This document shows positions 1-6,103 of a stretch of DNA of 6,174 bases, in pieces. Where the stretch lies: assembly GCA_046536775.1 (NCBI GenBank), contig JAWDMD010000026.1, positions 1 to 6,174 on the forward strand, in the 5' to 3' direction. Made by a program: the position numbers and the translations under genes. Source of the DNA: Candidatus Nanopusillus sp. Lineage in GTDB: Archaea > Nanobdellota > Nanobdellia > Nanobdellales > Nanobdellaceae. Each line of letters starts with the position of its first letter. Position 1 is the first letter of the stretch. The notes beneath the pieces were generated by a model, which saw only the letters and a program-made list of their open reading frames with translations, was not told where the DNA came from and ran no database searches.

Positions 1-815
1 GCAAGTACGAGGGGTCGTTCGCGGAGCTGATAGGCGCGAGGGTCCTGGACCTCTCGGAGCCGCAGGGCCTGAACCCGTACGACGTCTTCGAGACGCCGGC
101 CGCGGCCGCGTCCTTCATAGCTGACCTCGCGGGGATAGTCGAGCCGGACCTCCGCGCGGAGCTGAACCTCATACAGGCGGGGGACGTGTACGAGCTGGTG
201 GACAAGGCGGAGGGATCCCTCAAGAAGAGGCTGGAGGCCGGCCTGAAGCCATTCGAGAGCCTGTGGTCCGCGAGGAGCGACCTCTACGGACGCCAGGTGT
301 TCGTCCTCAGCAGCATAGCGAGCTCCGCGGTGCGCGACGCGGCCGCCTACTTGGTGCTCGCGTGGATCTGGAGGACGGTGAAGAAGCTGCCGGTGCGCGA
401 GCGCAAGATGATCGTGGTGGACGAGGGGTGGGCCTTCGTGGAGACGGATCCCCGCACCGGGAAGCCGTACTTCCCGGGGGCGGTCGGGTTCGTGCCCGAG
501 ATAGCGAGGACGGGCCGCCACTACAACGCGGCGTTCATCATCGCGACGCAGAGGGTCTCGGACATGATGTCCGGGCCGGGCCGCGTCGTGATGGAGAGCG
601 CGGCCACAAAGATAGTCCTGAGGCAGGATTCGGCCGCCATCGACCTGCTGGCCGGGCCGCTCTCGCTCTCGCCCGAGGAGCAGAGGTTCATACTCAGCGC
701 GCGGGTCGGCCAGGGCCTGCTCATATCGCCGCTGGGCCACGTCCCGTTCCGCAACCTGCTCTCGAAGGGCGAGCTGGAGAGGTTCACTACTAAGCCCAAG
801 GAGGTCAGCCGCTAG
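1..815 (+). CDS. VirB4/TrbE/CedB-type (HerA-FtsK superfamily, AAA_10-like) secretion/conjugation ATPase, C-terminal ~270 aa; the 5' end lies outside the window
   Basis: Frame 3 is open from base 3 to TAG 813-815. I hand-translated 3-185 as KYEGSFAELIGARVLDLSEPQGLNPYDVFETP... with no stop, so the GTG at 186 in the ORF track is an internal codon. Motifs in the translation: LNPYD; a Walker B-like block KMIVVDEGWAF; ARTGRHYNAAFIIATQRVSDM; and the tail ELERFTTKPKE, which resembles the FTTxPxE ending of VirB4/TrbE-like ATPases. Walker A must lie upstream of the window. GC3 is high. Confidence 0.85.
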   Translation, partial: KYEGSFAELIGARVLDLSEPQGLNPYDVFETPAAAASFIADLAGIVEPDLRAELNLIQAGDVYELVDKAEGSLKKRLEAGLKPFESLWSARSDLYGRQVFVLSSIASSAVRDAAAYLVLAWIWRTVKKLPVRERKMIVVDEGWAFVETDPRTGKPYFPGAVGFVPEIARTGRHYNAAFIIATQRVSDMMSGPGRVVMESAATKIVLRQDSAAIDLLAGPLSLSPEEQRFILSARVGQGLLISPLGHVPFRNLLSKGELERFTTKPKEVSR

Positions 816-914: not shown

Positions 915-1472
915 TCAGGCGCGCTTCAGGGGCCACCTATGCAGGAACTTTCCCTCGTGCAGGCGATACCGGTACCCGCCGAGGACCAGCCCCGTCTCGG
1001 CGGGCGCCGCCCGCACCCGCTCCAGGAACTCCCGGAGCGGGGGCCCCGCGAACGGCCCCGCCGGCTCGCCCGACGGGGTCGTCACTAAGACCCACTCGCC
1101 GTGCCCGTTCTTTGAGCGCCTCCACTCCAGGGCCTCCAAGGCCCTGGAGAGGGCCGCATCGCCGTTCCCCGCGTCGGGCCTCAGGGGCTCCATAACCCCC
1201 GGGGCCGGCGCCGCGGGCTCCTTCGCCTCCGCCTGCCCGGCCACGGGCGCGGCCGCCGGCGCGGCCGGCGCCGGGGCGGGCGCCCCAGCGATCGCCGGGC
1301 CCGGCAGGAACTGTAGGGCGCGGGCCAGCACCACCGCGCGCTCCTCGGGCGATGCCCGCGGGAGCGCGGCGACGATGGCCACGCGCACCGGGGCTACGAC
1401 CTCGCTCAGCCACCGCTCGACCGCCGCGACGGCCTCCTCCCCCTTCTTCTCGGACTTGTTCTCGCTCGACAT
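915..1472 (-). CDS. Hypothetical two-domain protein (185 aa): helical N-domain, Ala/Pro-rich linker, and a C-domain with WRRSKNGHGEWVLV...GGYRYRLHEGKFLHRWP
   Basis: ATG at 1472..1470 is preceded on the minus strand by TATA GTTAAAAG (rc of 1497-1504) with a 24-nt spacer. Amino-acid composition is natural and GC3 is high. The overlapping track ORFs 937..1578(-) and 883..1503(+) are Arg/Gly/Ala-rich shadow frames. The linker is aa 57-92 (nt 1197-1304). I recognise no family. Confidence 0.75.
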   Translation of the reverse strand: MSSENKSEKKGEEAVAAVERWLSEVVAPVRVAIVAALPRASPEERAVVLARALQFLPGPAIAGAPAPAPAAPAAAPVAGQAEAKEPAAPAPGVMEPLRPDAGNGDAALSRALEALEWRRSKNGHGEWVLVTTPSGEPAGPFAGPPLREFLERVRAAPAETGLVLGGYRYRLHEGKFLHRWPLKRA

Positions 1473-1496
1473 TTCCGCGCCCCCGTGCCGAGGGGC

Positions 1497-1504
1497 CTTT
1501 TAAC
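1497..1504 (-). promoter_or_regulatory. TATA box (GTTAAAAG on the minus strand) for the 915..1472 gene
   Basis: It is an AT island in GC-rich DNA, 24 nt upstream of the ATG at 1472. This is the same geometry as the other promoters in the window. Confidence 0.6.
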
Positions 1505-1516
1505 GCGCCGGCGTGC

Positions 1517-1532
1517 ATATCTGCGCAGATAT
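1517..1532. repeat. Variant palindrome (P4) ATATCTGCGCAGATAT, a perfect 16 bp
   Basis: It shares the TGCGCA centre and the TATTAC right flank (1529-1535) with the main palindrome family. Its centre is 52.5 nt upstream of the ATG at 1472. The equivalent 24-bp footprint (1513-1536) ends 8 bp from the TATA box at 1497-1504. Confidence 0.6.
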
Positions 1533-1633
1533 TACGCGCCGCGCTGGTCGCCGCCGCCGTCCGCGAGGGCCTGCTCACGGGAGGGCTCTGGGAGTGCGCC
1601 CACTGCCCCTACCGCCGCGAGTGCCGGCCCGGG

Positions 1634-2566
1634 TTGCTGCCGGGGATCCCGGAGGGGTCCGCGGTCGCGGTCGCGGAGGTGGACGGCGCATTAGTTGATG
1701 ACTCGGAGCGCCGCCGCGCCGCATTGGCGGCCGCCGGCGCGTCGCTCGACGCGCCGCCGTGGAGGCTGACGGGCGAGGCGCGCGCGAGGTTCCTCGAGGC
1801 GTACTACGCAGAGGAGGCGCTGCGCCACGATAAACCGGGCCCACTGCTCGCGAGGGCGCTACGCCGCCCGGAGGGCTCGCGCCTCATCGTGGTGACCTCG
1901 CGCCCAGAGCGCCTGAGGTCCGCCACGGAGGCGGAGCTCCGCGGGCTCGGCGCCGCGCCGGACGCGCTGATCATGGCCCCGCCCGGCACCGAGGACGACT
2001 GGCGCGAGCGCATGCTGGAGCTGCTGGCCGAGGAGTACGGGCTCGCGCTCGTGCTGGACCCCGACCCGTGGGTCAGGAGGGCGGCCGAGCGGCTCGGGGC
2101 CGAGGCGCCGAGGCCGCGAGGGCGCGCGCATATAAGGCCGCGCGGAGTCCTTGGCTCTTGTTGTACTTGTTGTTGTGCTTGTGTTTGTTTATATAGCACT
2201 TCCACAGAAACCCACCCAATGGCGCTCGTTCAGGTCCTCGAGGAGGCCCTGCGCAGCGGCGACGAGAGGGAGATCGAGAGGGCCGTGAAGGAGCTGAAGA
2301 AATGGCTGGACTGGTTCGGCCCCCGGTACTTCGGGCTGGCGGTACAGGACACTTGGATCGCGGCGCCGCCCGAGAGGCGCCAGATGATCGAGGAGATGGT
2401 GAAAGAGCTGGAGAGTGTGCATAAGGAGGCCGCTTGGTGGGCCCAATACTACATAAAGCGCGCCAAGGAGGCTGAGAAGAAGGCTGAGAAGGATGAGCGC
2501 TCCGGCGAAATGTCAGGGCAGGAAGAGGGCGGTAGGCGACATCCTGAAATGTGCGCGCGTGGCTAG
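1634..2566 (+). CDS. Composite stop-free ORF: a HAD-superfamily phosphatase-like module (to about 2107), a TG-rich island, then a helical 115-aa module
   Basis: Frame 2 is uninterrupted. The first canonical start beyond the divergent gene is TTG 1634, and the next is GTG 1679. The track ATG at 1352 overlaps the divergent gene's 5' end, TATA and palindrome, and its N-terminal extension (1352 to about 1535) is Arg/Pro-rich shadow-frame sequence. HAD-like blocks: AVAVAEVDGAL (EVDGAL = 1676-1693), LIVVTSRPE (1883-1909), LVLDPDP (2048-2068). The start is unresolved, and no in-frame stop occurs before TAG 2564-2566. Confidence 0.5.
   Translation: MLPGIPEGSAVAVAEVDGALVDDSERRRAALAAAGASLDAPPWRLTGEARARFLEAYYAEEALRHDKPGPLLARALRRPEGSRLIVVTSRPERLRSATEAELRGLGAAPDALIMAPPGTEDDWRERMLELLAEEYGLALVLDPDPWVRRAAERLGAEAPRPRGRAHIRPRGVLGSCCTCCCACVCLYSTSTETHPMALVQVLEEALRSGDEREIERAVKELKKWLDWFGPRYFGLAVQDTWIAAPPERRQMIEEMVKELESVHKEAAWWAQYYIKRAKEAEKKAEKDERSGEMSGQEEGGRRHPEMCARG
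2129..2218 (+). promoter_or_regulatory. AT/TG-rich promoter-like island inside the open frame: TATA-like CATATAAG (2129-2136), TG-rich tract (2151-2190), TATA-like TTTATATA (2188-2195)
   Basis: GC content drops sharply here. In frame it reads as eight TGT Cys codons, whereas the upstream module's Cys codons are TGC. TTTATATA lies 23 nt upstream of ATG 2219, matching the leaderless geometry. The T-rich runs (GTGTTTGTTT) could also act as an archaeal terminator for the upstream module. Confidence 0.5.
2219..2566 (+). CDS. Helical/coiled-coil hypothetical protein (115 aa), nested in frame within 1634..2566 and probably expressed independently
   Basis: ATG 2219 has its own TATA-like element at the standard distance. 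The translation is clearly protein-like: MALVQVLEEALRSGDEREIERAVKELKKWLDWFGPRYF...KRAKEAEKKAEKDE. GC3 is high. This call is an alternative to, or isoform of, the long call. Confidence 0.6.
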   Translation: MALVQVLEEALRSGDEREIERAVKELKKWLDWFGPRYFGLAVQDTWIAAPPERRQMIEEMVKELESVHKEAAWWAQYYIKRAKEAEKKAEKDERSGEMSGQEEGGRRHPEMCARG

Positions 2567-3623
2567 GGTGCAACGCGAGGTCGTCTTCGAGAGCCATAAC
2601 TGGTTCCACGAGAAATCTGAGATCACCTTTTACAACGAGTGCGATGAGGAGCTGGACGTCATATGTGTGGATAGGCGCGCCCTCAGCCTGAATCTGGGCG
2701 CACTCTTCGAGTATAAGTACGCGGCCGTCCTGCGGGCGTACGGTGAGGACGGCACGTGGCTTAACCTGCTGAGGAGCGCAGACCCGTGCCTGGAGGGCGG
2801 CGGCCCAGGGCACATATGCTTCAGTCTCCCGGCGATCAAGCTGAGACCCCATGAATACTACACCGTGCAGCTCATGTACGAGGGGTCGCCGCTCTCAATT
2901 GAGGAGCCCTCCGCGGTGGTGAAGCGCTACACGCGGCGGTCACTGCTTTCCGCGGTCAAGCCGTACAGGGACGTCCCCGTGCTCATGTGGAACTATCCGC
3001 CCGGAAGAGCTCCGAGTATAATGCCGCAGTCGCTGTACACCGTGTTCCGCATTAGGGAGGACTGGTTGGAGATCGACGAGGGGTGGGCCAGGAAGTCCTT
3101 AGAGGAGGGTGAAGGAGTGATGGGCAAGTTGAAGAGTAAGCTCGACGTGATCGCGCTCAGCAATCGCGCGCTCGGCTACCGCATGGAGATTCCTTCAAGC
3201 ACGGAAAAGCTGGAGCTAGAGGAATTAGGGCCCGTTATCCCGAGGCCAGACGCGCGGCCAGCGGAGAGATTTGCGGCATTATTATTTATGTGGGCGTGGT
3301 TATTGGAGGTACCATATTACATTACACTCAAGCTTAGGGTGAATTTATTGTACAGATTGCTCGCGGTTCTCGTTGAGATCCTAGGGTTTCTCACGGCGGC
3401 CCTCTCATTGGTCTTCATGTCCCTTGTGCTCTGGCGCGGACAACAATCGATGATCGGCGATGGCCTGCTCCTGCTGACCACACTCTTCATCATAGTGCTG
3501 GGCAACTACTTGACGCTACCCAAGGGCGGCCCGCTGAGGTACGGGCTACTCGGCGGCGCGCTGGCCGCGGCCGCAGCGTCTGTGGCGGGGCTCGCAGTCA
3601 TGATGTTGCTGCGTATGCTCTAA
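2493..3623 (+). CDS. Membrane protein (376 aa): soluble beta-rich N-domain of about 255 aa plus about 4 C-terminal TM helices
   Basis: It is a long ORF with natural composition. TM segments: FAALLFMWAWLLEVPYYITL, LLAVLVEILGFLTAALSLVFMSLVLW, GLLLLTTLFIIVLGNYLTL, YGLLGGALAAAAASVAGLAVMMLLRML (about nt 3270-3620). Start alternatives are ATG 2493 (74-nt overlap with the upstream ORF, and frame 3 has the higher GC3 across the overlap), GTG 2559, and GTG 2568 (2 nt after the upstream stop). I recognise no family. Confidence 0.75.
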   Translation: MSAPAKCQGRKRAVGDILKCARVARVQREVVFESHNWFHEKSEITFYNECDEELDVICVDRRALSLNLGALFEYKYAAVLRAYGEDGTWLNLLRSADPCLEGGGPGHICFSLPAIKLRPHEYYTVQLMYEGSPLSIEEPSAVVKRYTRRSLLSAVKPYRDVPVLMWNYPPGRAPSIMPQSLYTVFRIREDWLEIDEGWARKSLEEGEGVMGKLKSKLDVIALSNRALGYRMEIPSSTEKLELEELGPVIPRPDARPAERFAALLFMWAWLLEVPYYITLKLRVNLLYRLLAVLVEILGFLTAALSLVFMSLVLWRGQQSMIGDGLLLLTTLFIIVLGNYLTLPKGGPLRYGLLGGALAAAAASVAGLAVMMLLRML

Positions 3624-3739
3624 CCGGGGCTCGCGCGGGCGGTGAAAGTGAACGATATGACCGATCCATAGACTTAGCTATACCGAGGGAGCGTAAATCG
3701 ACGTCCCGATCGGGGGAGTTCGGGCGTAAGTATGAGCCT

Positions 3740-3892
3740 TCAGGCGGCCACACCGAGCACCGTCATCAGCGCGGCCCCCAGCGCGGCGGGCGCCCAGGCG
3801 AGGTCGTCGACCTCCCTGCTCCTCAGGTCCTGGTGGGCCGCCGCGGCGTAGCTCGCGGCCACGAGCGCCGTGCCGGCGAGCGCCGGGTCCAC
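3740..3892 (-). CDS. Unlisted small ORF, 50 aa, two hydrophobic helices with a charged loop: MDPALAGTALVAASYAAAAHQDLRSREVDDLAWAPAALGAALMTVLGVAA. Candidate helical-hairpin (VirB2/CedA1/TedC-style) pilin or small membrane protein
   Basis: I reverse-translated it by hand. GTG (rc of 3890-3892) to TGA (rc of 3740-3742) is 153 nt, and an in-frame TAG (rc of 3914-3916) lies 7 codons upstream, so GTG is the only possible start. Of 50 codons, 49 end in G/C. The start is preceded by CTTTTTAG (rc of 3914-3921), 3 nt, GCGGCCGCACG and 7 nt, the same cassette as the divergent pilin-like gene. The track ORF 3678..3914(-) over this region is an Arg/Gly shadow frame. Confidence 0.55.
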   Translation of the reverse strand: MDPALAGTALVAASYAAAAHQDLRSREVDDLAWAPAALGAALMTVLGVAA

Positions 3893-3913
3893 GCGCGCCC
3901 GTGCGGCCGCGCA

Positions 3914-3921
3914 CTAAAAAG
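3914..3921 (-). promoter_or_regulatory. TATA box (CTTTTTAG on the minus strand) for the 50-aa ORF
   Basis: It lies 21 nt upstream of the GTG at 3892 and 8 bp from the edge of the palindrome. Confidence 0.55.
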
Positions 3922-3929
3922 CGCCACGT

Positions 3930-3953
3930 GGTAATACTTGCGCAAGTATTACC
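3930..3953. repeat. Perfect 24-bp palindrome (P2) GGTAATACTTGCGCAAGTATTACC, the putative operator of a divergent promoter
   Basis: The reverse complement of GGTAATACTTGC is GCAAGTATTACC. It lies between two divergent TATA boxes, with gaps of 8 and 9 bp. It is an AT-rich island. Confidence 0.8.
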
Positions 3954-3962
3954 GGCGTTGCC

Positions 3963-3970
3963 CTTTTAAG
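3963..3970 (+). promoter_or_regulatory. TATA box CTTTTAAG for the pilin-like gene
   Basis: A 20-nt spacer (CCGCGGCCGCACGTGTCGCC) separates it from GTG 3991, implying a leaderless transcript. Confidence 0.65.
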
Positions 3971-3990: not shown

Positions 3991-4992
3991 GTGAGGCGCA
4001 GGGCGGCCATATCCCAGATGCTCGGCACCCTGATACTGATCGCGATCGTGCTGGTCGCGGCCGTGCTGGTGTACCATGCCGGAATGTTTGCCGCGCAGCG
4101 CGCCTCCGGCGGCGCGGGGATCTCGGTGAGCGGCGCCTCCGTGGAGGCGTTCCCCGGCGGCGCGTTCGTGACGCTCACGGTCACGAACACCGGGAGCGCG
4201 CCCGGGTACGTCTCGGTGGCGCTCTACCAGGGAGGGTCGCGGGTCTTCTGGGCGCCGGGCGCGCCCGGGCTGCTGTACCAGATATACACGAACCCGAACA
4301 TAATGTGGGACGAGCCGCCCGAGTCGCTCGTGTACTCGGCCCCGCTGGCCCCCGGCAGCTCCTTCCAGTACGACGGCACCTGGAGCGCGCCGGTCGGGCC
4401 CTGGACCACGCCCGGCGCCGGGTCGGCGCAGGACGTGAACGGGCAGACCCAGCCCAACGTGATAGACAACATGCAGTATGAGTACACGGGCGGCGCGCCC
4501 TTCCCGAACCCGCCCGTCTCCGCCCCCGGGAACGAGTTCGCGATCAAGGAGATAGGGTACATGGTGGTGACCCAGCCCACCGTGTTCTACGTGGACATAG
4601 ACGACGGCGGGGCGCTGGGCGCGATCCCCTACAGCCCCGGCGTTTTCACTCAGGAGACCTCGTGGCTCGGGGGGACCTCCAACCCCGCGAACCTGATAAG
4701 CGCGTGGTACGGCCAGCCCGCGACTGTACACTCCTCGGGCACGGTGCAGCCCGGCACCTACCTCGTGGAGTACGACTACTTCCAGTTCGGCGGCGGCGCC
4801 TACTGGAGCCTGTGGTCGAGCGCGCCGGTGTATTACTACCACCCGGTGCTCCTGTACCCCGGGCAGTCCGCGATTCTCAACTACACGCTCGCGGCGCAGC
4901 TGCAGCCCGGCTCGCAGTGCACGGTCTCGGCGACCATAACAACGCCGGCCGGGACCGCCACCGCATCCGCGACCGTCACGGTCGCGCCTTGA
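3991..4992 (+). CDS. Type IV pilin-like protein (archaeal class III signal peptide) with a beta-sandwich region, a PA14-like carbohydrate-binding domain and a Thr/Ala-rich C-terminal beta domain (333 aa)
   Basis: The N-terminus MRRRAAISQMLGTLILIAIVLVAAVLVY matches the archaeal prepilin pattern: basic residues, small residue, then ISxxxGTLxLIAIxxV. PA14-like blocks lie at aa ~92-277 (nt 4264-4821): GLLYQIY, NEFAIKEIGYMVVTQPTVFYVDIDDGGAL, VQPGTYLVEYDYFQFGGGAYWSLWSS. GC3 is high, and every overlapping track ORF is a shadow frame. Confidence 0.85.
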   Translation: MRRRAAISQMLGTLILIAIVLVAAVLVYHAGMFAAQRASGGAGISVSGASVEAFPGGAFVTLTVTNTGSAPGYVSVALYQGGSRVFWAPGAPGLLYQIYTNPNIMWDEPPESLVYSAPLAPGSSFQYDGTWSAPVGPWTTPGAGSAQDVNGQTQPNVIDNMQYEYTGGAPFPNPPVSAPGNEFAIKEIGYMVVTQPTVFYVDIDDGGALGAIPYSPGVFTQETSWLGGTSNPANLISAWYGQPATVHSSGTVQPGTYLVEYDYFQFGGGAYWSLWSSAPVYYYHPVLLYPGQSAILNYTLAAQLQPGSQCTVSATITTPAGTATASATVTVAP

Positions 4993-4995
4993 GCA

Positions 4996-5658
4996 TCACG
5001 TGAGAGCCGCCGCCAGCTTCAGCACCATGTCCACCGCCCACATGTGCTCCGGTGGGGCGAGCACGGGTATCCGGTCGACATTGGCCATGAGCTCTCCCAG
5101 GGTCCACTCGAAGGCCTCGTCATCCGCGCGGCCGTCGAGGCGCGCGACTAAGATGGCCGCGTGCCTCGCCAGGGCCGAGAGGACCTCCATTGGGAAATAT
5201 TGGTCCTCGAGTCCGCCCGCCCGGTCGGCGACCATCTCGTACTCGCGCATCAGCGCGTGGTAGTACACGTAGAGATTGGTGTTCTCGGCGAGGTCCGGAA
5301 AGCGCTCGTCCAGATAGCGCAGGAACTCCCCACGCCTCTCCGCCAGGGCCTCCGCCTGCCTCCCCGCGAACTCGCGGAGGATCTCCCACTGCTCCCCCTC
5401 GCCCAGCCGCGAGAACAGCCGGATGAGCTCCGCGAGCTCCGGGTCCGCCCTCCCCAAGGCGTCCTCCAGGCCCGCGAGCTCCGGCCCCTCCGGGGAGCCG
5501 AGCTCCCAGCGCACGAGGCCGACCAGCGCGTCGACCACCTTATCCACCGGGATCCCCGCGCCCACCCCGCGGGCGGGGTGGGACCTCTCGCGGATCTCGC
5601 GCGCCGGCAGGATCTCCAGCGCGCCCGCCAGCGGTGAGGGACTCGCGCCCATGTCCAC
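4996..5658 (-). CDS. Hypothetical acidic helical protein (220 aa)
   Basis: GTG at 5658 (an alternative ATG lies at 5652) is preceded on the minus strand by TATA CTTATATT (rc of 5680-5687) with a 21-nt spacer, and by palindrome P3 8 bp further upstream. Composition is natural and GC3 is high. It converges on the pilin-like gene with a 3-bp gap. I recognise no family. Confidence 0.75.
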   Translation of the reverse strand: MDMGASPSPLAGALEILPAREIRERSHPARGVGAGIPVDKVVDALVGLVRWELGSPEGPELAGLEDALGRADPELAELIRLFSRLGEGEQWEILREFAGRQAEALAERRGEFLRYLDERFPDLAENTNLYVYYHALMREYEMVADRAGGLEDQYFPMEVLSALARHAAILVARLDGRADDEAFEWTLGELMANVDRIPVLAPPEHMWAVDMVLKLAAALT

Positions 5659-5687: not shown

Positions 5688-5695
5688 ATCGGTGC

Positions 5696-5717
5696 GTAAT
5701 ACTTGCGCAAGTATTAC
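5696..5717. repeat. Perfect 22-bp palindrome (P3) GTAATACTTGCGCAAGTATTAC
   Basis: It is the same sequence as P2 without the outermost base pair. Its centre is 48.5 nt upstream of the GTG at 5658. Its right arm contains the TAA stop (rc of 5714-5716) of the 5714..6103 gene. Confidence 0.8.
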
Positions 5718-6103
5718 CGCGCGCGGCCTCGCCAGGTCGGCGGGGGCGCGAGGCGCGGCGCCAGCCACACCGCGAAGACGTTGTTCACAACGACCGCGCC
5801 GTTGAGTATGATGAGCGCGGCCGCGGCGCCGTGGAACAGCGGGATGATGCGCGGCCGGGCGAGCGCCCTCGCGTATATGTAGCGGAGCGCGAGCGTGAAT
5901 ATCAGGACCCTCACGAGCGCGTCCGCGGCGAGCCCCCCGGCGAGCCCCAGCGCGCCGATGAGCGAGGCGGTCACGGGGTCGCCCTCCGCGACCGGCAGGC
6001 TCGGGTCACTCAGCGCGAGGTACGTGAGCAGGACGTCGGCGGCCACTAGGAGGTCCGCGGCCAGCGCGGCCGCGATCAGGGAGCGGCGCGTGGGCGGCCT
6101 CAC
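5714..6103 (-). CDS. Small polytopic membrane protein (129 aa), DUF5658-like
   Basis: GTG at 6103 lies 20 nt downstream (minus strand) of CTTTTAAG (rc of 6124-6131). Hydrophobic segments: LIAAALAADLLVAADVLLTYLAL, LIGALGLAGGLAADALV, IIPLFHGAAAALIILNGAVVVNNVFAVWL. The pattern D-x2-LT-x2-AL ... EGDP resembles the D..LT...L...E.NP signature that I recall for the DUF5658 family. That is a memory-based assignment and has not been searched. Confidence 0.7.
   Translation of the reverse strand: MRPPTRRSLIAAALAADLLVAADVLLTYLALSDPSLPVAEGDPVTASLIGALGLAGGLAADALVRVLIFTLALRYIYARALARPRIIPLFHGAAAALIILNGAVVVNNVFAVWLAPRLAPPPTWRGRAR

Follow-up and report, generated by a model that had tools for sequence, protein, structure and literature searches.

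The gene at positions 3991 to 4992 (forward strand) of the window, i.e. the whole 6,174-nucleotide stretch of DNA analyzed here, encodes a 333-residue protein which is probably a modular archaeal type IV pilin that displays a divergent PA14 lectin on a filament, for adhesion before DNA transfer. Comparison with natural alleles and with pilin profiles shows that the PA14-like domain is a 194-residue insertion in a loop of a single pilin head and not a C-terminal or otherwise linear fusion.

The open reading frame begins with GTG and contains all peptide strings quoted in an earlier, sequence-only reading of this DNA. It is a real gene under purifying selection and not a chance reading frame of DNA with 68% GC, since 23 homologues (40-93% identity) were found and the 64 nucleotide differences from the copy on the sibling contig L002 accumulate in third codon positions (17/10/37 in positions 1/2/3). 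Only 22 of the 333 residues differ between these two copies. The GTG is supported as the start codon over the ATG at codon 10, because the two differences from L002 within codons 1-9 are both synonymous, a TTTTAA box upstream is conserved and the called N-termini of homologues are equivalently basic (MKRHAVSQ, MKRGRAAISQ and MTKSGKKNKAISP). This TATA-box-like sequence (3964 to 3969, forward strand) lies about 25 nt 5' of the GTG with the same spacing in L002; it is a putative promoter element, and the spacing would imply a leaderless or near-leaderless transcript. Further upstream, a perfect palindrome of 24 bp (GGTAATACTTGCGCAAGTATTACC) spans positions 3930 to 3953. Its 22-nt core is present in two perfect copies in the window (0 expected from 200 shuffles), the motif is also intergenic in the sibling contigs L002, L017 and L031, and homology blocks shared with siblings begin or finish at it. 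We consider the palindrome a candidate operator or module boundary of a mobile element. Scans of the window for tRNAs, Rfam families, sigma-70 promoters and terminators returned nothing.

The protein starts with MRRRAA, the n-region of a class III (prepilin-type) signal (3991 to 4008, forward strand), in which basic residues and alanine are followed by a hydrophobic run of about 22 residues (MRRRAA/ISQMLGTLILIAIVLVAAVLVY). Cleavage is predicted after A5 or A6. The region aligns with KNKA/ISPIIATLILI of the family member P0015, which scores 38.8 bits with TIGR02537. The leader of the window protein satisfies a FlaFind-type rule; homologues instead show His at -2 or KAEGN, and prepilin processing is therefore not assured. 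The hydrophobic alpha-1 helix (aa 7-38; 4009 to 4104, forward strand) is delineated by the AlphaFold2 model (helix over residues 2-38), by a TIGR02537 match to aa 11-29 and by alignment of the pilin profile with the helices of the archaeal pilins 8fk7 and 3j1r. With a cut-off of 20 bits the TIGR02537 score is borderline, namely 18.4 bits for the native protein and 20.6 bits after excision of the insert, and PF07790 matches 6 of the 23 family members. The N-terminal features of archaeal type IV pilins (basic leader, Ala at -1, helix of about 20 residues) are present, with a borderline profile match in the window protein itself.

What had been taken for two separate domains, a beta-rich segment and a Thr/Ala-rich C-terminal beta domain, proved to be the two halves of one pilin head. 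The N-terminal half of this beta-sandwich, with four strands, comprises aa 39-93 (4105 to 4269, forward strand) and the C-terminal half aa 288-333 (4852 to 4992, forward strand, stop codon included). In the native protein, matches of the first half are confined to the N-terminal part of Ig-like profiles and those of the second half to the C-terminal parts of the NPCBM_assoc and choice_anch_D profiles, and the UpsA profile NF046073 aligns with aa 5-71 (E=9.4e-5). Upon in-silico excision of aa 92-284, which leaves a protein of 140 aa, the UpsA profile is matched over positions 2-126 of 136 (E=3.9e-8; E=1.6e-10 for the excised Conexivisphaera homologue P0007), and matches to DUF4232 and CARDB cover both halves. 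The profile of the excised family aligns nearly over the full length with two solved archaeal pilins, 8fk7 of the Pyrobaculum calidifontis type IV pilus (residues 12-139, E=0.0079; PMC10334743) and 6w8u (E=0.012), with indels located at the insert junction. At the level of profiles, these comparisons show that the two segments make up one complete UpsA-like head with an Ig-like beta-sandwich fold. The pilin module is, by the same profiles, UpsA-like and not UpsA: with 22.6-33.5 bits it stays far under the NF046073 equivalog cut-off of 130, and no ups genes surround it in the window. The assignment as a type IV pilin made in the sequence-only reading is borne out by the UpsA and TIGR02537 matches and by the alignments with 8fk7 and 6w8u.

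The PA14-like domain occupies aa 94-287 (4270 to 4851, forward strand) and is exactly absent from natural alleles. Six short proteins of 131-141 aa, 40-89% identical to the flanks, occupy identical synteny in sibling elements and carry the two head halves contiguously. The short allele on L029 and the long one on L001 lie in DNA of 88% nucleotide identity, and L031 (short) is 89-94% identical to the window and L002 (both long); the net difference between long and short is 579 bp (193 codons) in both lineages. The metagenome Ga0080003 holds both a long (L024) and a short (L029) allele. By these alignments, the pilin exists in a plain and a lectin-bearing form that differ by the clean, in-frame gain or loss of one cassette, and this natural presence or absence makes the domain appear to be an exchangeable module for adhesion. 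The fusion proposed earlier gives way to an insertion on account of the short alleles and the profiles of the excised construct. The domain itself had been correctly noticed at aa ~92-277, with limits that the natural in-frame indel corrects to aa 94-287. As a cause of the indel, a direct repeat of 11 nt (GCTSCTGTACC; copies at 4269 and 4848, spacing exactly 579 bp) was considered and set aside as weak; it is absent in the other lineage. Across the family, three distinct N-termini with class III signals precede the same core domain (a Conexivisphaera type, a longer Nitrososphaeria type and a Micrarchaeota QxSxEF type). Pilin fusions to the core domain appear to have arisen independently, and this was counted in support of the modular pilin.

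The identity of the inserted domain emerged at the level of the family and of the fold. PF07691 and PF10528 (GLEYA) gave no match to the window protein at E<=1 and none to its 23 close homologues at E<=0.1; of the 50 cluster representatives scanned (62 found), they detect one, the outlying bona fide PA14 protein P0080 (E=7e-44 with PF07691). The window domain is not a PA14 domain by the curated Pfam models. Single-sequence searches of the window protein against Pfam, NCBIfam and PDB returned no PA14 either, and transthyretin matches in the PDB search were chance (E>0.06). It is nevertheless supported as a divergent PA14 domain, at the superfamily level, by profile and fold comparisons. A profile of 32 family sequences (A4), searched against PDB, matched both PA14 modules of the RsgI3 dyad (6qe7) with E=2.2e-6, and hhalign aligned it to P0080 over 83 columns with a probability of 91% (E=1e-6). 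The AlphaFold2 model of the domain alone reached a pLDDT of 81 and a pTM of 0.82; the loop at aa 220-230, next to the putative binding site, was modeled below pLDDT 50. With the whole and the domain-only models, the top 47 Foldseek matches in PDB were all PA14 domains (probability ~1.0, best E=4.8e-5, TM-scores moderate at 0.3-0.53), including MpPA14, Flo1/5, Epa1/6/9, RsgI and the inserts of GH3 and GH31 enzymes. In BFVD the top 3 matches were PA14, and 10 of the top 13 were annotated PA14 or GLEYA. The earlier suggestion of a PA14-like domain has therefore held up in the RsgI3 profile match, in hhalign and in fold searches of two libraries, whereas the PF07691 search that had been proposed as a check came out negative.

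The PA14-like core family comprises 62 clusters at 50% identity, all of them from acidophilic archaea (Conexivisphaerales-like Nitrososphaeria, Micrarchaeota, Parvarchaeota and Thermoplasmatota). The core domain often resides in giant DPANN surface proteins alongside DUF2341. Copies also lie in housekeeping neighborhoods (L004, L005), so that a role in conjugation is not general.

Only five residues, G93, K186, G189, D204 and D205, are invariant in the core alignment, the 32 sequences of which share 29-63% identity with the domain of the window. The aspartates D204-D205 (4600 to 4605, forward strand), a candidate DcisD calcium-binding pair, align with TDDG of RsgI3 PA14-A, in which DD is the DcisD motif (PMC6852018). 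Q265 (4783 to 4785, forward strand) is a candidate third calcium ligand at the Asn/Gln position of CBL2; 31 of the 32 members have N, Q or E there, and the residue corresponds in the alignment to Q113 of chain 6qe7_A, the CBL2 ligand that the paper numbers Q130 (PMC6852018). The binding-site comparison of DD and Q265 was also referred to PMC8092209. Together, D204-D205 and Q265 match the calcium-site pattern of PA14 lectins in their sequence and constitute a candidate site, from which we infer that the domain binds glycans. The three strings that the sequence-only reading had singled out as PA14 hallmarks belong to the conserved core of the family, two of them aligning with the corresponding motifs of RsgI3 and of a bona fide PA14 protein. 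Its guess that DD of VDIDDGG is the calcium-binding Asp pair fares well in the alignments, being invariant in 32 sequences and in register with the RsgI3 DcisD. Against a calcium site counts that coordination by carboxylates is weakened at low pH and that the hosts appear to be acidophiles.

The surroundings of the gene point to a mobile element. The 3' part of a VirB4/TraC-like conjugation ATPase gene lies at positions 3 to 815 (forward strand; frame open from 3) and runs off the left end of the window; its C-terminal region matches TIGR02746 (TraC, E=6.8e-15) and TIGR00929 (VirB4, E=2.1e-10). This is the only machinery gene in the 6 kb, in which no prepilin peptidase, platform protein or FlaI was found; a prepilin peptidase was also not seen in the relatives examined. 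Convergent with the pilin gene is a gene for a conserved 220-aa protein (4996 to 5658, reverse strand) without a family match in profile searches. Its counterparts are located beside or near the pilin gene in eight sibling contigs (42-81% identity). It was rejected as a PA14-specific partner: it is absent from the short-allele contig L031, yet L032, which also carries a short allele, has a homologue nearby. In relatives of the L001 type, the pilin gene heads an operon of three genes, the other two of which encode proteins with class III signals, and adjoins an UpsB/archaellin-like pilin; a FlaI/BasE-like ATPase is encoded 9 kb away (E=7e-95). In all, the relatives carry three further pilin genes; their elements also have a ParB-like protein and a tyrosine integrase, and give a weak match to VirD4. 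A membrane protein of 567-590 aa, common to both element types, had no family match and no VirB6/TrbL assignment. For thaumarchaeal integrative-conjugative elements, Krupovic et al. 2019 (PMC6563490) list the ATPases VirB4 and VirD4 together with VirB6, FlaI/PilT, a prepilin peptidase, pilins, ParB and an integrase. The gene content suggests that the pilin gene sits on an element of this thaumarchaeal type, only part of which lies in the window. A viral origin was dropped because megablast of the whole window against phage and plasmid collections, IMG/VR scans with the protein patterns and the palindrome, and PHROGs (for the pilin) gave no match.

In the mechanism we propose, a prepilin peptidase of the PibD/FlaK type would take off the leader, and a FlaI-like ATPase would power polymerization of the alpha-1 helix into a type IV pilus. 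Residing in an outward loop of the head, the PA14 module would thereby be shown on the filament, along its length for a major subunit such as UpsA or at the tip for a minor one. Signal cleavage, filament assembly and a minor or tip-pilin role are what we infer; the 194-residue insert may clash with packing as a major subunit. As in Flo5, Epa1, MpPA14 and the RsgI PA14 domains, the module would grip vicinal diols of sugars through a calcium ion, whose ligands would be D204-D205, Q265 and carbonyls from the backbone of the FGGG loop. Given the conjugative-element context of the gene, adhesion for DNA transfer would be the most likely role: glycan-mediated contacts between cells or with a cell surface would join partners, analogous to Ups pili recognizing S-layer N-glycans. 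A bolder version, doubtful but worth entertaining, has the conjugative element bring its own lectin-decorated mating pilus, in which the PA14 cassette, placed in a loop approximating the glycan-specificity region of UpsA, picks docking partners by their S-layer glycans. Gain or loss of the cassette would then switch or widen the range of DNA transfer, and the same module would serve DPANN episymbionts as a host-attachment domain.

Other readings of the domain assign it to a different place or task. The protein could be a membrane-tethered surface lectin outside any filament, the class III-type N-terminus acting as signal or anchor only and the PA14 domain capturing surface polysaccharide or glycan. 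The sugar-binding proteins of the Saccharolobus bindosome are a precedent for class III-type signals on non-filament proteins. The window is devoid of pilus assembly genes, the FlaI-like ATPase of the L001 relative is almost equally similar to the bindosome ATPase BasE (E=6e-87), and the core domain also occurs in very large DPANN surface proteins that are not pilins. Even so, we regard a tethered lectin as unlikely: the flanks form a complete pilin head like those of UpsA and of solved subunits and unlike a substrate-binding protein, the alleles that lack PA14 are ordinary pilins of 131-141 aa, and in relatives the gene shares an operon with other small pilins.

Also rather unlikely is that the insert, instead of acting as a lectin, forms an outer domain with a structural or protective task, much like those inserted into flagellins; it might stabilize the pilus in hot acid or mask it from pilus-binding viruses, and the alleles would then reflect an arms race. 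Long and short alleles do coexist in one metagenome (Ga0080003), the TM-scores to lectin PA14 domains are moderate, and there are PA14 domains, for instance in anthrax protective antigen, for which no lectin activity is known. However, the family has no invariant acidic residues besides the DD pair, which forms the sugar and calcium site in PA14 lectins, and the amide/carboxylate position of CBL2 is kept as well, a pattern that a purely structural role does not predict. We give very little weight to a feeding module that binds plant, algal or microbial polysaccharide, like the PA14 domains of glycosidases and RsgI biomass sensors, instead of serving cell-cell contact. In sequence the domain comes closest to the RsgI PA14 dyad, a sensor of pectin and xylan (PMC6852018), and GH3 and GH31 inserts are among the fold matches, but no glycoside hydrolase or sugar transporter adjoins the gene in any locus examined, and the pilin forms sit on a mobile element with DNA-transfer genes.

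As a pilin with a PA14-like insert, the window protein falls under the definition of modular type IV pilins, in which a pilin is joined to a module that is not pilus-specific (Raynaud et al. 2021, PMC8179133). Bacterial examples are PilB (vWA) and PilC (ConA-like lectin) of Streptococcus sanguinis, and the combination of pilin and PA14 (IPR012902 + IPR011658) is among the frequent bacterial architectures; archaea are not mentioned in that survey (PMC8179133). Common to both is a small pilin module with a bulky ligand-binding module, so that a filament presents the adhesin. They differ in that the bacterial proteins combine the IPR012902 N-methylation motif with an alpha-beta roll and carry the module grafted at the C-terminus, whereas here a class III signal precedes an Ig-like, UpsA-type head with the module inside it, as in GspK, and the PA14 domain is too divergent for Pfam and InterPro signatures. 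Ups pili of Sulfolobales mediate glycan-specific aggregation preceding DNA exchange, and the specificity of UpsA maps to a length-variable region at aa 84-98 (van Wolferen et al. 2020, PMC7064770). The UpsA profile is the best for the window pilin module, the neighboring pilin in relatives is UpsB-like, and the PA14 domain is inserted near profile position 90, a correspondence with aa 84-98 of UpsA that is approximate. In UpsA a short loop binds glycans, whereas a whole lectin domain fills that area in the window pilin, which moreover scores 33 versus 130 bits, lacks a ups operon and sits on a mobile element. With the PA14 lectins (Flo1/Flo5, Epa1/6/9, Marinomonas MpPA14 and the Clostridium RsgI dyads; PF07691/PF10528) the inserted domain shares the beta-sandwich, profile homology, a conserved DD in the corresponding strand, Asn/Gln in the corresponding loop and, as proposed here, use in an adhesin. 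It differs from them in escaping the Pfam models, in a long N-terminal elaboration (aa 100-180) and in an additional segment of about 15-20 residues that separates the DD strand from the conserved strand after it. In the accessible part of their description (PMC6563490), thaumarchaeal elements resemble the window and its relatives, which between them hold VirB4/TraC-like, weakly VirD4-like, FlaI-like, pilin, ParB-like and integrase genes; a lectin-bearing pilin is not described for those elements there. The PA14-like family defined here had previously been without a model, and a family model would annotate such proteins.

To our knowledge, the Ups pili of Sulfolobales are the one system in which recognition between archaea before DNA exchange is understood, and there the glycan site is a short, poorly defined loop. 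The present pilin, a related subunit, has in the same part a recognizable lectin fold whose calcium and sugar site can be predicted, and glycan recognition by an archaeal pilus thereby becomes directly testable with point mutants and glycan arrays. The long and short natural alleles at one locus offer a ready-made comparison. The finding extends the modular-pilin principle from bacteria to archaea, in the form of an internal insertion, and would tie a surface adhesin to archaeal integrative-conjugative elements and their mating.

With a GC content of 68%, the window contains long ORFs on every strand; despite this background, the ORF at 3991-4992 (plus strand), encoding the 333-residue pilin, is a real gene, with 23 homologues (identity 40-93%). 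Its 64 nucleotide differences from the sibling contig L002 (17/10/37 by codon position) give only 22 amino acid changes. The GTG start is supported by the two differences within codons 1-9, both synonymous, and by a TTTTAA box about 25 nt upstream that is conserved in the window and L002; equivalent basic leaders were present in the called N-termini of the homologues. All peptide strings quoted in an earlier sequence-only reading, which had described a type IV pilin fused to a PA14-like lectin domain, were found in the product.

The PA14 claim failed with the Pfam model and was borne out by fold searches and profile comparisons. Pfam scans detected PA14 neither in the window pilin nor in any of the 23 homologues, and in 1 of 50 wider relatives scanned: P0080, a true PA14 protein at the search edge scoring 7e-44 on PF07691. 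AlphaFold2 models were obtained for the full-length pilin (pLDDT 79, pTM 0.72) and for the PA14-like domain alone (pLDDT 81, pTM 0.82), and PDB fold searches with both returned PA14 domains almost exclusively. The top 47 matches of the domain-only model comprised MpPA14, Flo1/Flo5, Epa1/6/9, Cea1A, RsgI dyads and GH3/GH31 PA14 inserts (probability about 1.0, best E=4.8e-5, TM-scores 0.3-0.53); in BFVD, an independent library, 10 of the 13 top matches were annotated as PA14 or GLEYA. Against the RsgI3 PA14 dyad, a core profile gave E=0.007 when built from 20 close sequences and E=2.2e-6 when built from 32 diverse ones, and hhalign of the family profile with P0080 yielded 91% probability (E=1e-6, 83 columns). 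Fold, sequence profiles and binding-site residues agree that residues 94-287 form a divergent PA14 domain.

Only G93, K186, G189, D204 and D205 were invariant in the core alignment of 32 sequences, which share 29-63% identity with the window domain. D204-D205 aligned with TDDG of RsgI3 PA14-A, and Q265, a position that is N, Q or E in all but one of the 32 members, aligned with RsgI3 chain residue Q113 (Q130 in the numbering of PMC6852018). In RsgI3 the DD pair is the DcisD motif and Q130 a loop-2 calcium ligand (PMC6852018), and in MpPA14 the same DcisD motif coordinates the calcium to which sugar diols bind (PMC8092209). At the sequence level, these alignments and the invariance support D204-D205 as a candidate calcium-binding DcisD pair, as had been guessed. 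Once the leader is removed, the product has a single lysine (the family-invariant K186), one arginine and 16 aspartates and glutamates; one N-glycosylation sequon (N297-Y-T) is present. Such a composition, low in Lys/Arg and rich in Asp/Glu, is typical of surface proteins in acidophiles and matters for the question of whether calcium is coordinated at ambient pH.

For the native pilin, the UpsA profile gave a match to the first 71 residues (E=9.4e-5), and the score on TIGR02537 was 18.4 bits (cut-off 20). Ig-like profiles matched with their N-terminal part only at residues 43-72 and with their C-terminal part only at residues 295-331; a split domain was thus suspected. In-silico excision of residues 92-284 left a 140-residue sequence that matched UpsA profile positions 2-126 of 136 (E=3.9e-8), scored 20.6 bits on TIGR02537, above the cut-off, and gave continuous DUF4232 and CARDB matches. 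A Conexivisphaera homologue excised likewise matched UpsA with E=1.6e-10, and the excised-family profile aligned near full length with the solved archaeal pilus subunits 8fk7 (the Pyrobaculum calidifontis T4P; PMC10334743) and 6w8u, with indels at the junction. These matches, together with natural insert-free proteins at the same locus, show that the two flanking segments are halves of the same pilin head. The pilin-PA14 combination therefore stands, and the 'beta-rich segment' and 'C-terminal beta domain' previously taken as separate domains do not; the PA14 module is very probably a cassette-like insertion in one loop of a single head.

The insert-free proteins (131-141 residues) were retrieved with the excised-pilin profile. 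P0096 and P0099 share 86-89% identity with the flanks of the window protein, and P0097, P0098, P0100 and P0101 are their equivalents in a second lineage. Short and long alleles share their locus and its gene order: L029 (short) is 88% identical in nucleotides to L001 (long), and L031 (short) 89-94% identical to the window and L002 (long). In both lineages long and short alleles differ by a net 579 bp (193 codons), and one metagenome contains both a long (L024) and a short (L029) allele. The PA14-coding segment is bordered in the window by an imperfect 11-nt direct repeat, GCTGCTGTACC at 4269-4279 and GCTCCTGTACC at 4848-4858, both encoding Leu-Leu-Tyr and spaced by exactly the 579 bp of the natural indel. 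A corresponding repeat is absent from the 42% GC lineage, so the repeat may be a chance occurrence.

An exhaustive profile search placed the core domain in 62 clusters (50% identity), with named members in Conexivisphaera and other Nitrososphaeria, Micrarchaeota, Parvarchaeota (ARMAN-5) and Thermoplasmatota. Of 50 representatives, 23 have it behind a DUF2341 domain, often within proteins 1000-5000 residues long. It is fused to three distinct class-III-type N-termini, including a QxSxEF-type leader in two Micrarchaeota proteins. Some copies lie among housekeeping genes. Giant surface proteins of DPANN and Thermoplasmatota (loci L007-L016), among them P0028 (4123 aa, Parvarchaeum ARMAN-5 cluster), P0025, P0041 and P0081 (5085 aa), usually carry the core directly after DUF2341 and before a conserved YYxPxxPPNG motif; they might serve episymbiotic archaea in attaching to their hosts.

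At its left end the window codes for the C-terminal part of a VirB4/TraC-like ATPase (TIGR02746, E=6.8e-15); searches of phage, plasmid and IMG/VR collections gave no match. In the 42% GC relatives (L001, L024, L028, L029) the pilin is first in a three-gene operon with two more class-III-signal proteins and adjoins an UpsB/archaellin-like pilin. A FlaI/BasE-like ATPase (E=7e-95) is encoded 9 kb away, and a ParB-like gene and a tyrosine integrase are nearby. The repertoire of the window and its relatives resembles that of Thaumarchaeota integrative-conjugative elements, described as carrying VirB4, VirD4, VirB6, FlaI, prepilin peptidase, pilins and ParB (PMC6563490). A 567-624-residue protein (L002 5042-6814, L001 2208-3911, L031 3528-5402) has a secreted Ser/Thr-rich N-terminal and a polytopic C-terminal membrane part. 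It is common to the 68% and 42% GC element types (567-590 aa, 41% identity) and matched nothing in Pfam or NCBIfam; from where its gene lies, it may be a VirB6/TrbL-like channel component. Convergent with the pilin gene, window 4996-5658 (minus strand) encodes a 220-residue acidic protein with 42-81% identity in eight sibling contigs and no match in family searches. The gene is absent from L031, yet a homologue occurs near the PA14-less allele in L032, so the protein is no dedicated partner of the lectin module. L028 carries a defence island within or adjacent to the element: downstream of its pilin operon (1689-7510), a DISARM-like pair encodes an SNF2 helicase of the DrmD type (E=2e-98) and a methyltransferase-like protein with DUF1156 (E=2e-58).

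A perfect 24-bp palindrome, GGTAATACTTGCGCAAGTATTACC, recurs at intergenic positions of the element family (0 expected by chance). It lies at window 3930-3953, 40 nt upstream of the pilin gene, and 5695-5718, with a half-variant at 824-843 and a degenerate copy at 1517-1546, and in L002 at 725-748, 2688-2711, 3746-3769 and 4495-4518. The copy upstream of the pilin is flanked by a larger inverted repeat (3900-3919/3964-3983) carrying two outward-facing boxes, TTTTAA/TTTTAG. Sibling contigs are mosaic, with homology blocks starting or stopping at the palindrome, and the elements are mosaics of cassettes; the palindrome might act as an operator for a regulator of the element, as the core of a bidirectional promoter or as a cassette-shuffling recombination site. 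A segment of about 1.8 kb (window 2129-3926; GC 0.54-0.61 versus about 0.70), absent from L002 and L031, holds a 116-residue coiled-coil-like ORF (2216-2566) that recurs at a different position in L017, a 376-residue protein with C-terminal membrane helices (2493-3623) and a 50-residue hydrophobic ORF (3740-3892, minus strand). L002 (1399-2727) and L031 (1387-2610) encode a 407-442-residue PDDEXK_1 (Cas4-like) protein. Its counterpart at window 1352-2130 lacks about 634 bp (L031 1351-1984). What is kept is the C-terminal part alone, which matches a polynucleotide kinase PHROG (E=4e-7) and whose reading frame continues into the inserted segment; this remnant is probably truncated or a pseudogene. 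The window also lacks an extra small class-III-signal pilin-like gene (135 aa, VCVRRPALASAVTAIALIILAMVVL...) that lies between the VirB4-like gene and a 188-aa gene in L002 (311-718, plus strand) and L031 (216-614), and the gap is bounded by the 24-bp palindrome.

The gene thus combines a complete pilin module with an inserted PA14-fold module that bears a conserved DD/Q triad; it exists as presence/absence alleles and stands in a mobile-element context with DNA-transfer genes and, in relatives, pilus-assembly genes. We infer that the leader would be cleaved and the helix would polymerise into a type IV pilus, on which the PA14 module would be displayed and bind sugars through calcium. The pilus may then mediate adhesion, most plausibly to S-layer glycans of a partner cell before DNA transfer, in parallel to Ups pili (PMC7064770). 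There, specificity lies in the length-variable UpsA region of residues 84-98, and the insertion, at profile position ~90, falls roughly at the same place, the match by profile position being approximate. A rival reading is that the product is a non-filament anchored lectin. The insert might alternatively be a structural or anti-viral outer domain, or serve in polysaccharide tethering for feeding. A lectin function of the module is moderately likely, and a role of the pilin in mating is put forward tentatively.

PA14 adhesins are already known, and our literature search found no publication combining PA14, archaea and pilin. Bacterial 'modular pilins', including pilin-PA14 architectures, have been described (PMC8179133); the present pilin differs by its archaeal setting and by insertion of the module internally in an UpsA-like head. 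Besides these two features, what is new is a PA14-like family invisible to Pfam, natural pilin alleles with and without the PA14 module, and carriage of such a pilin on a conjugative-type element.
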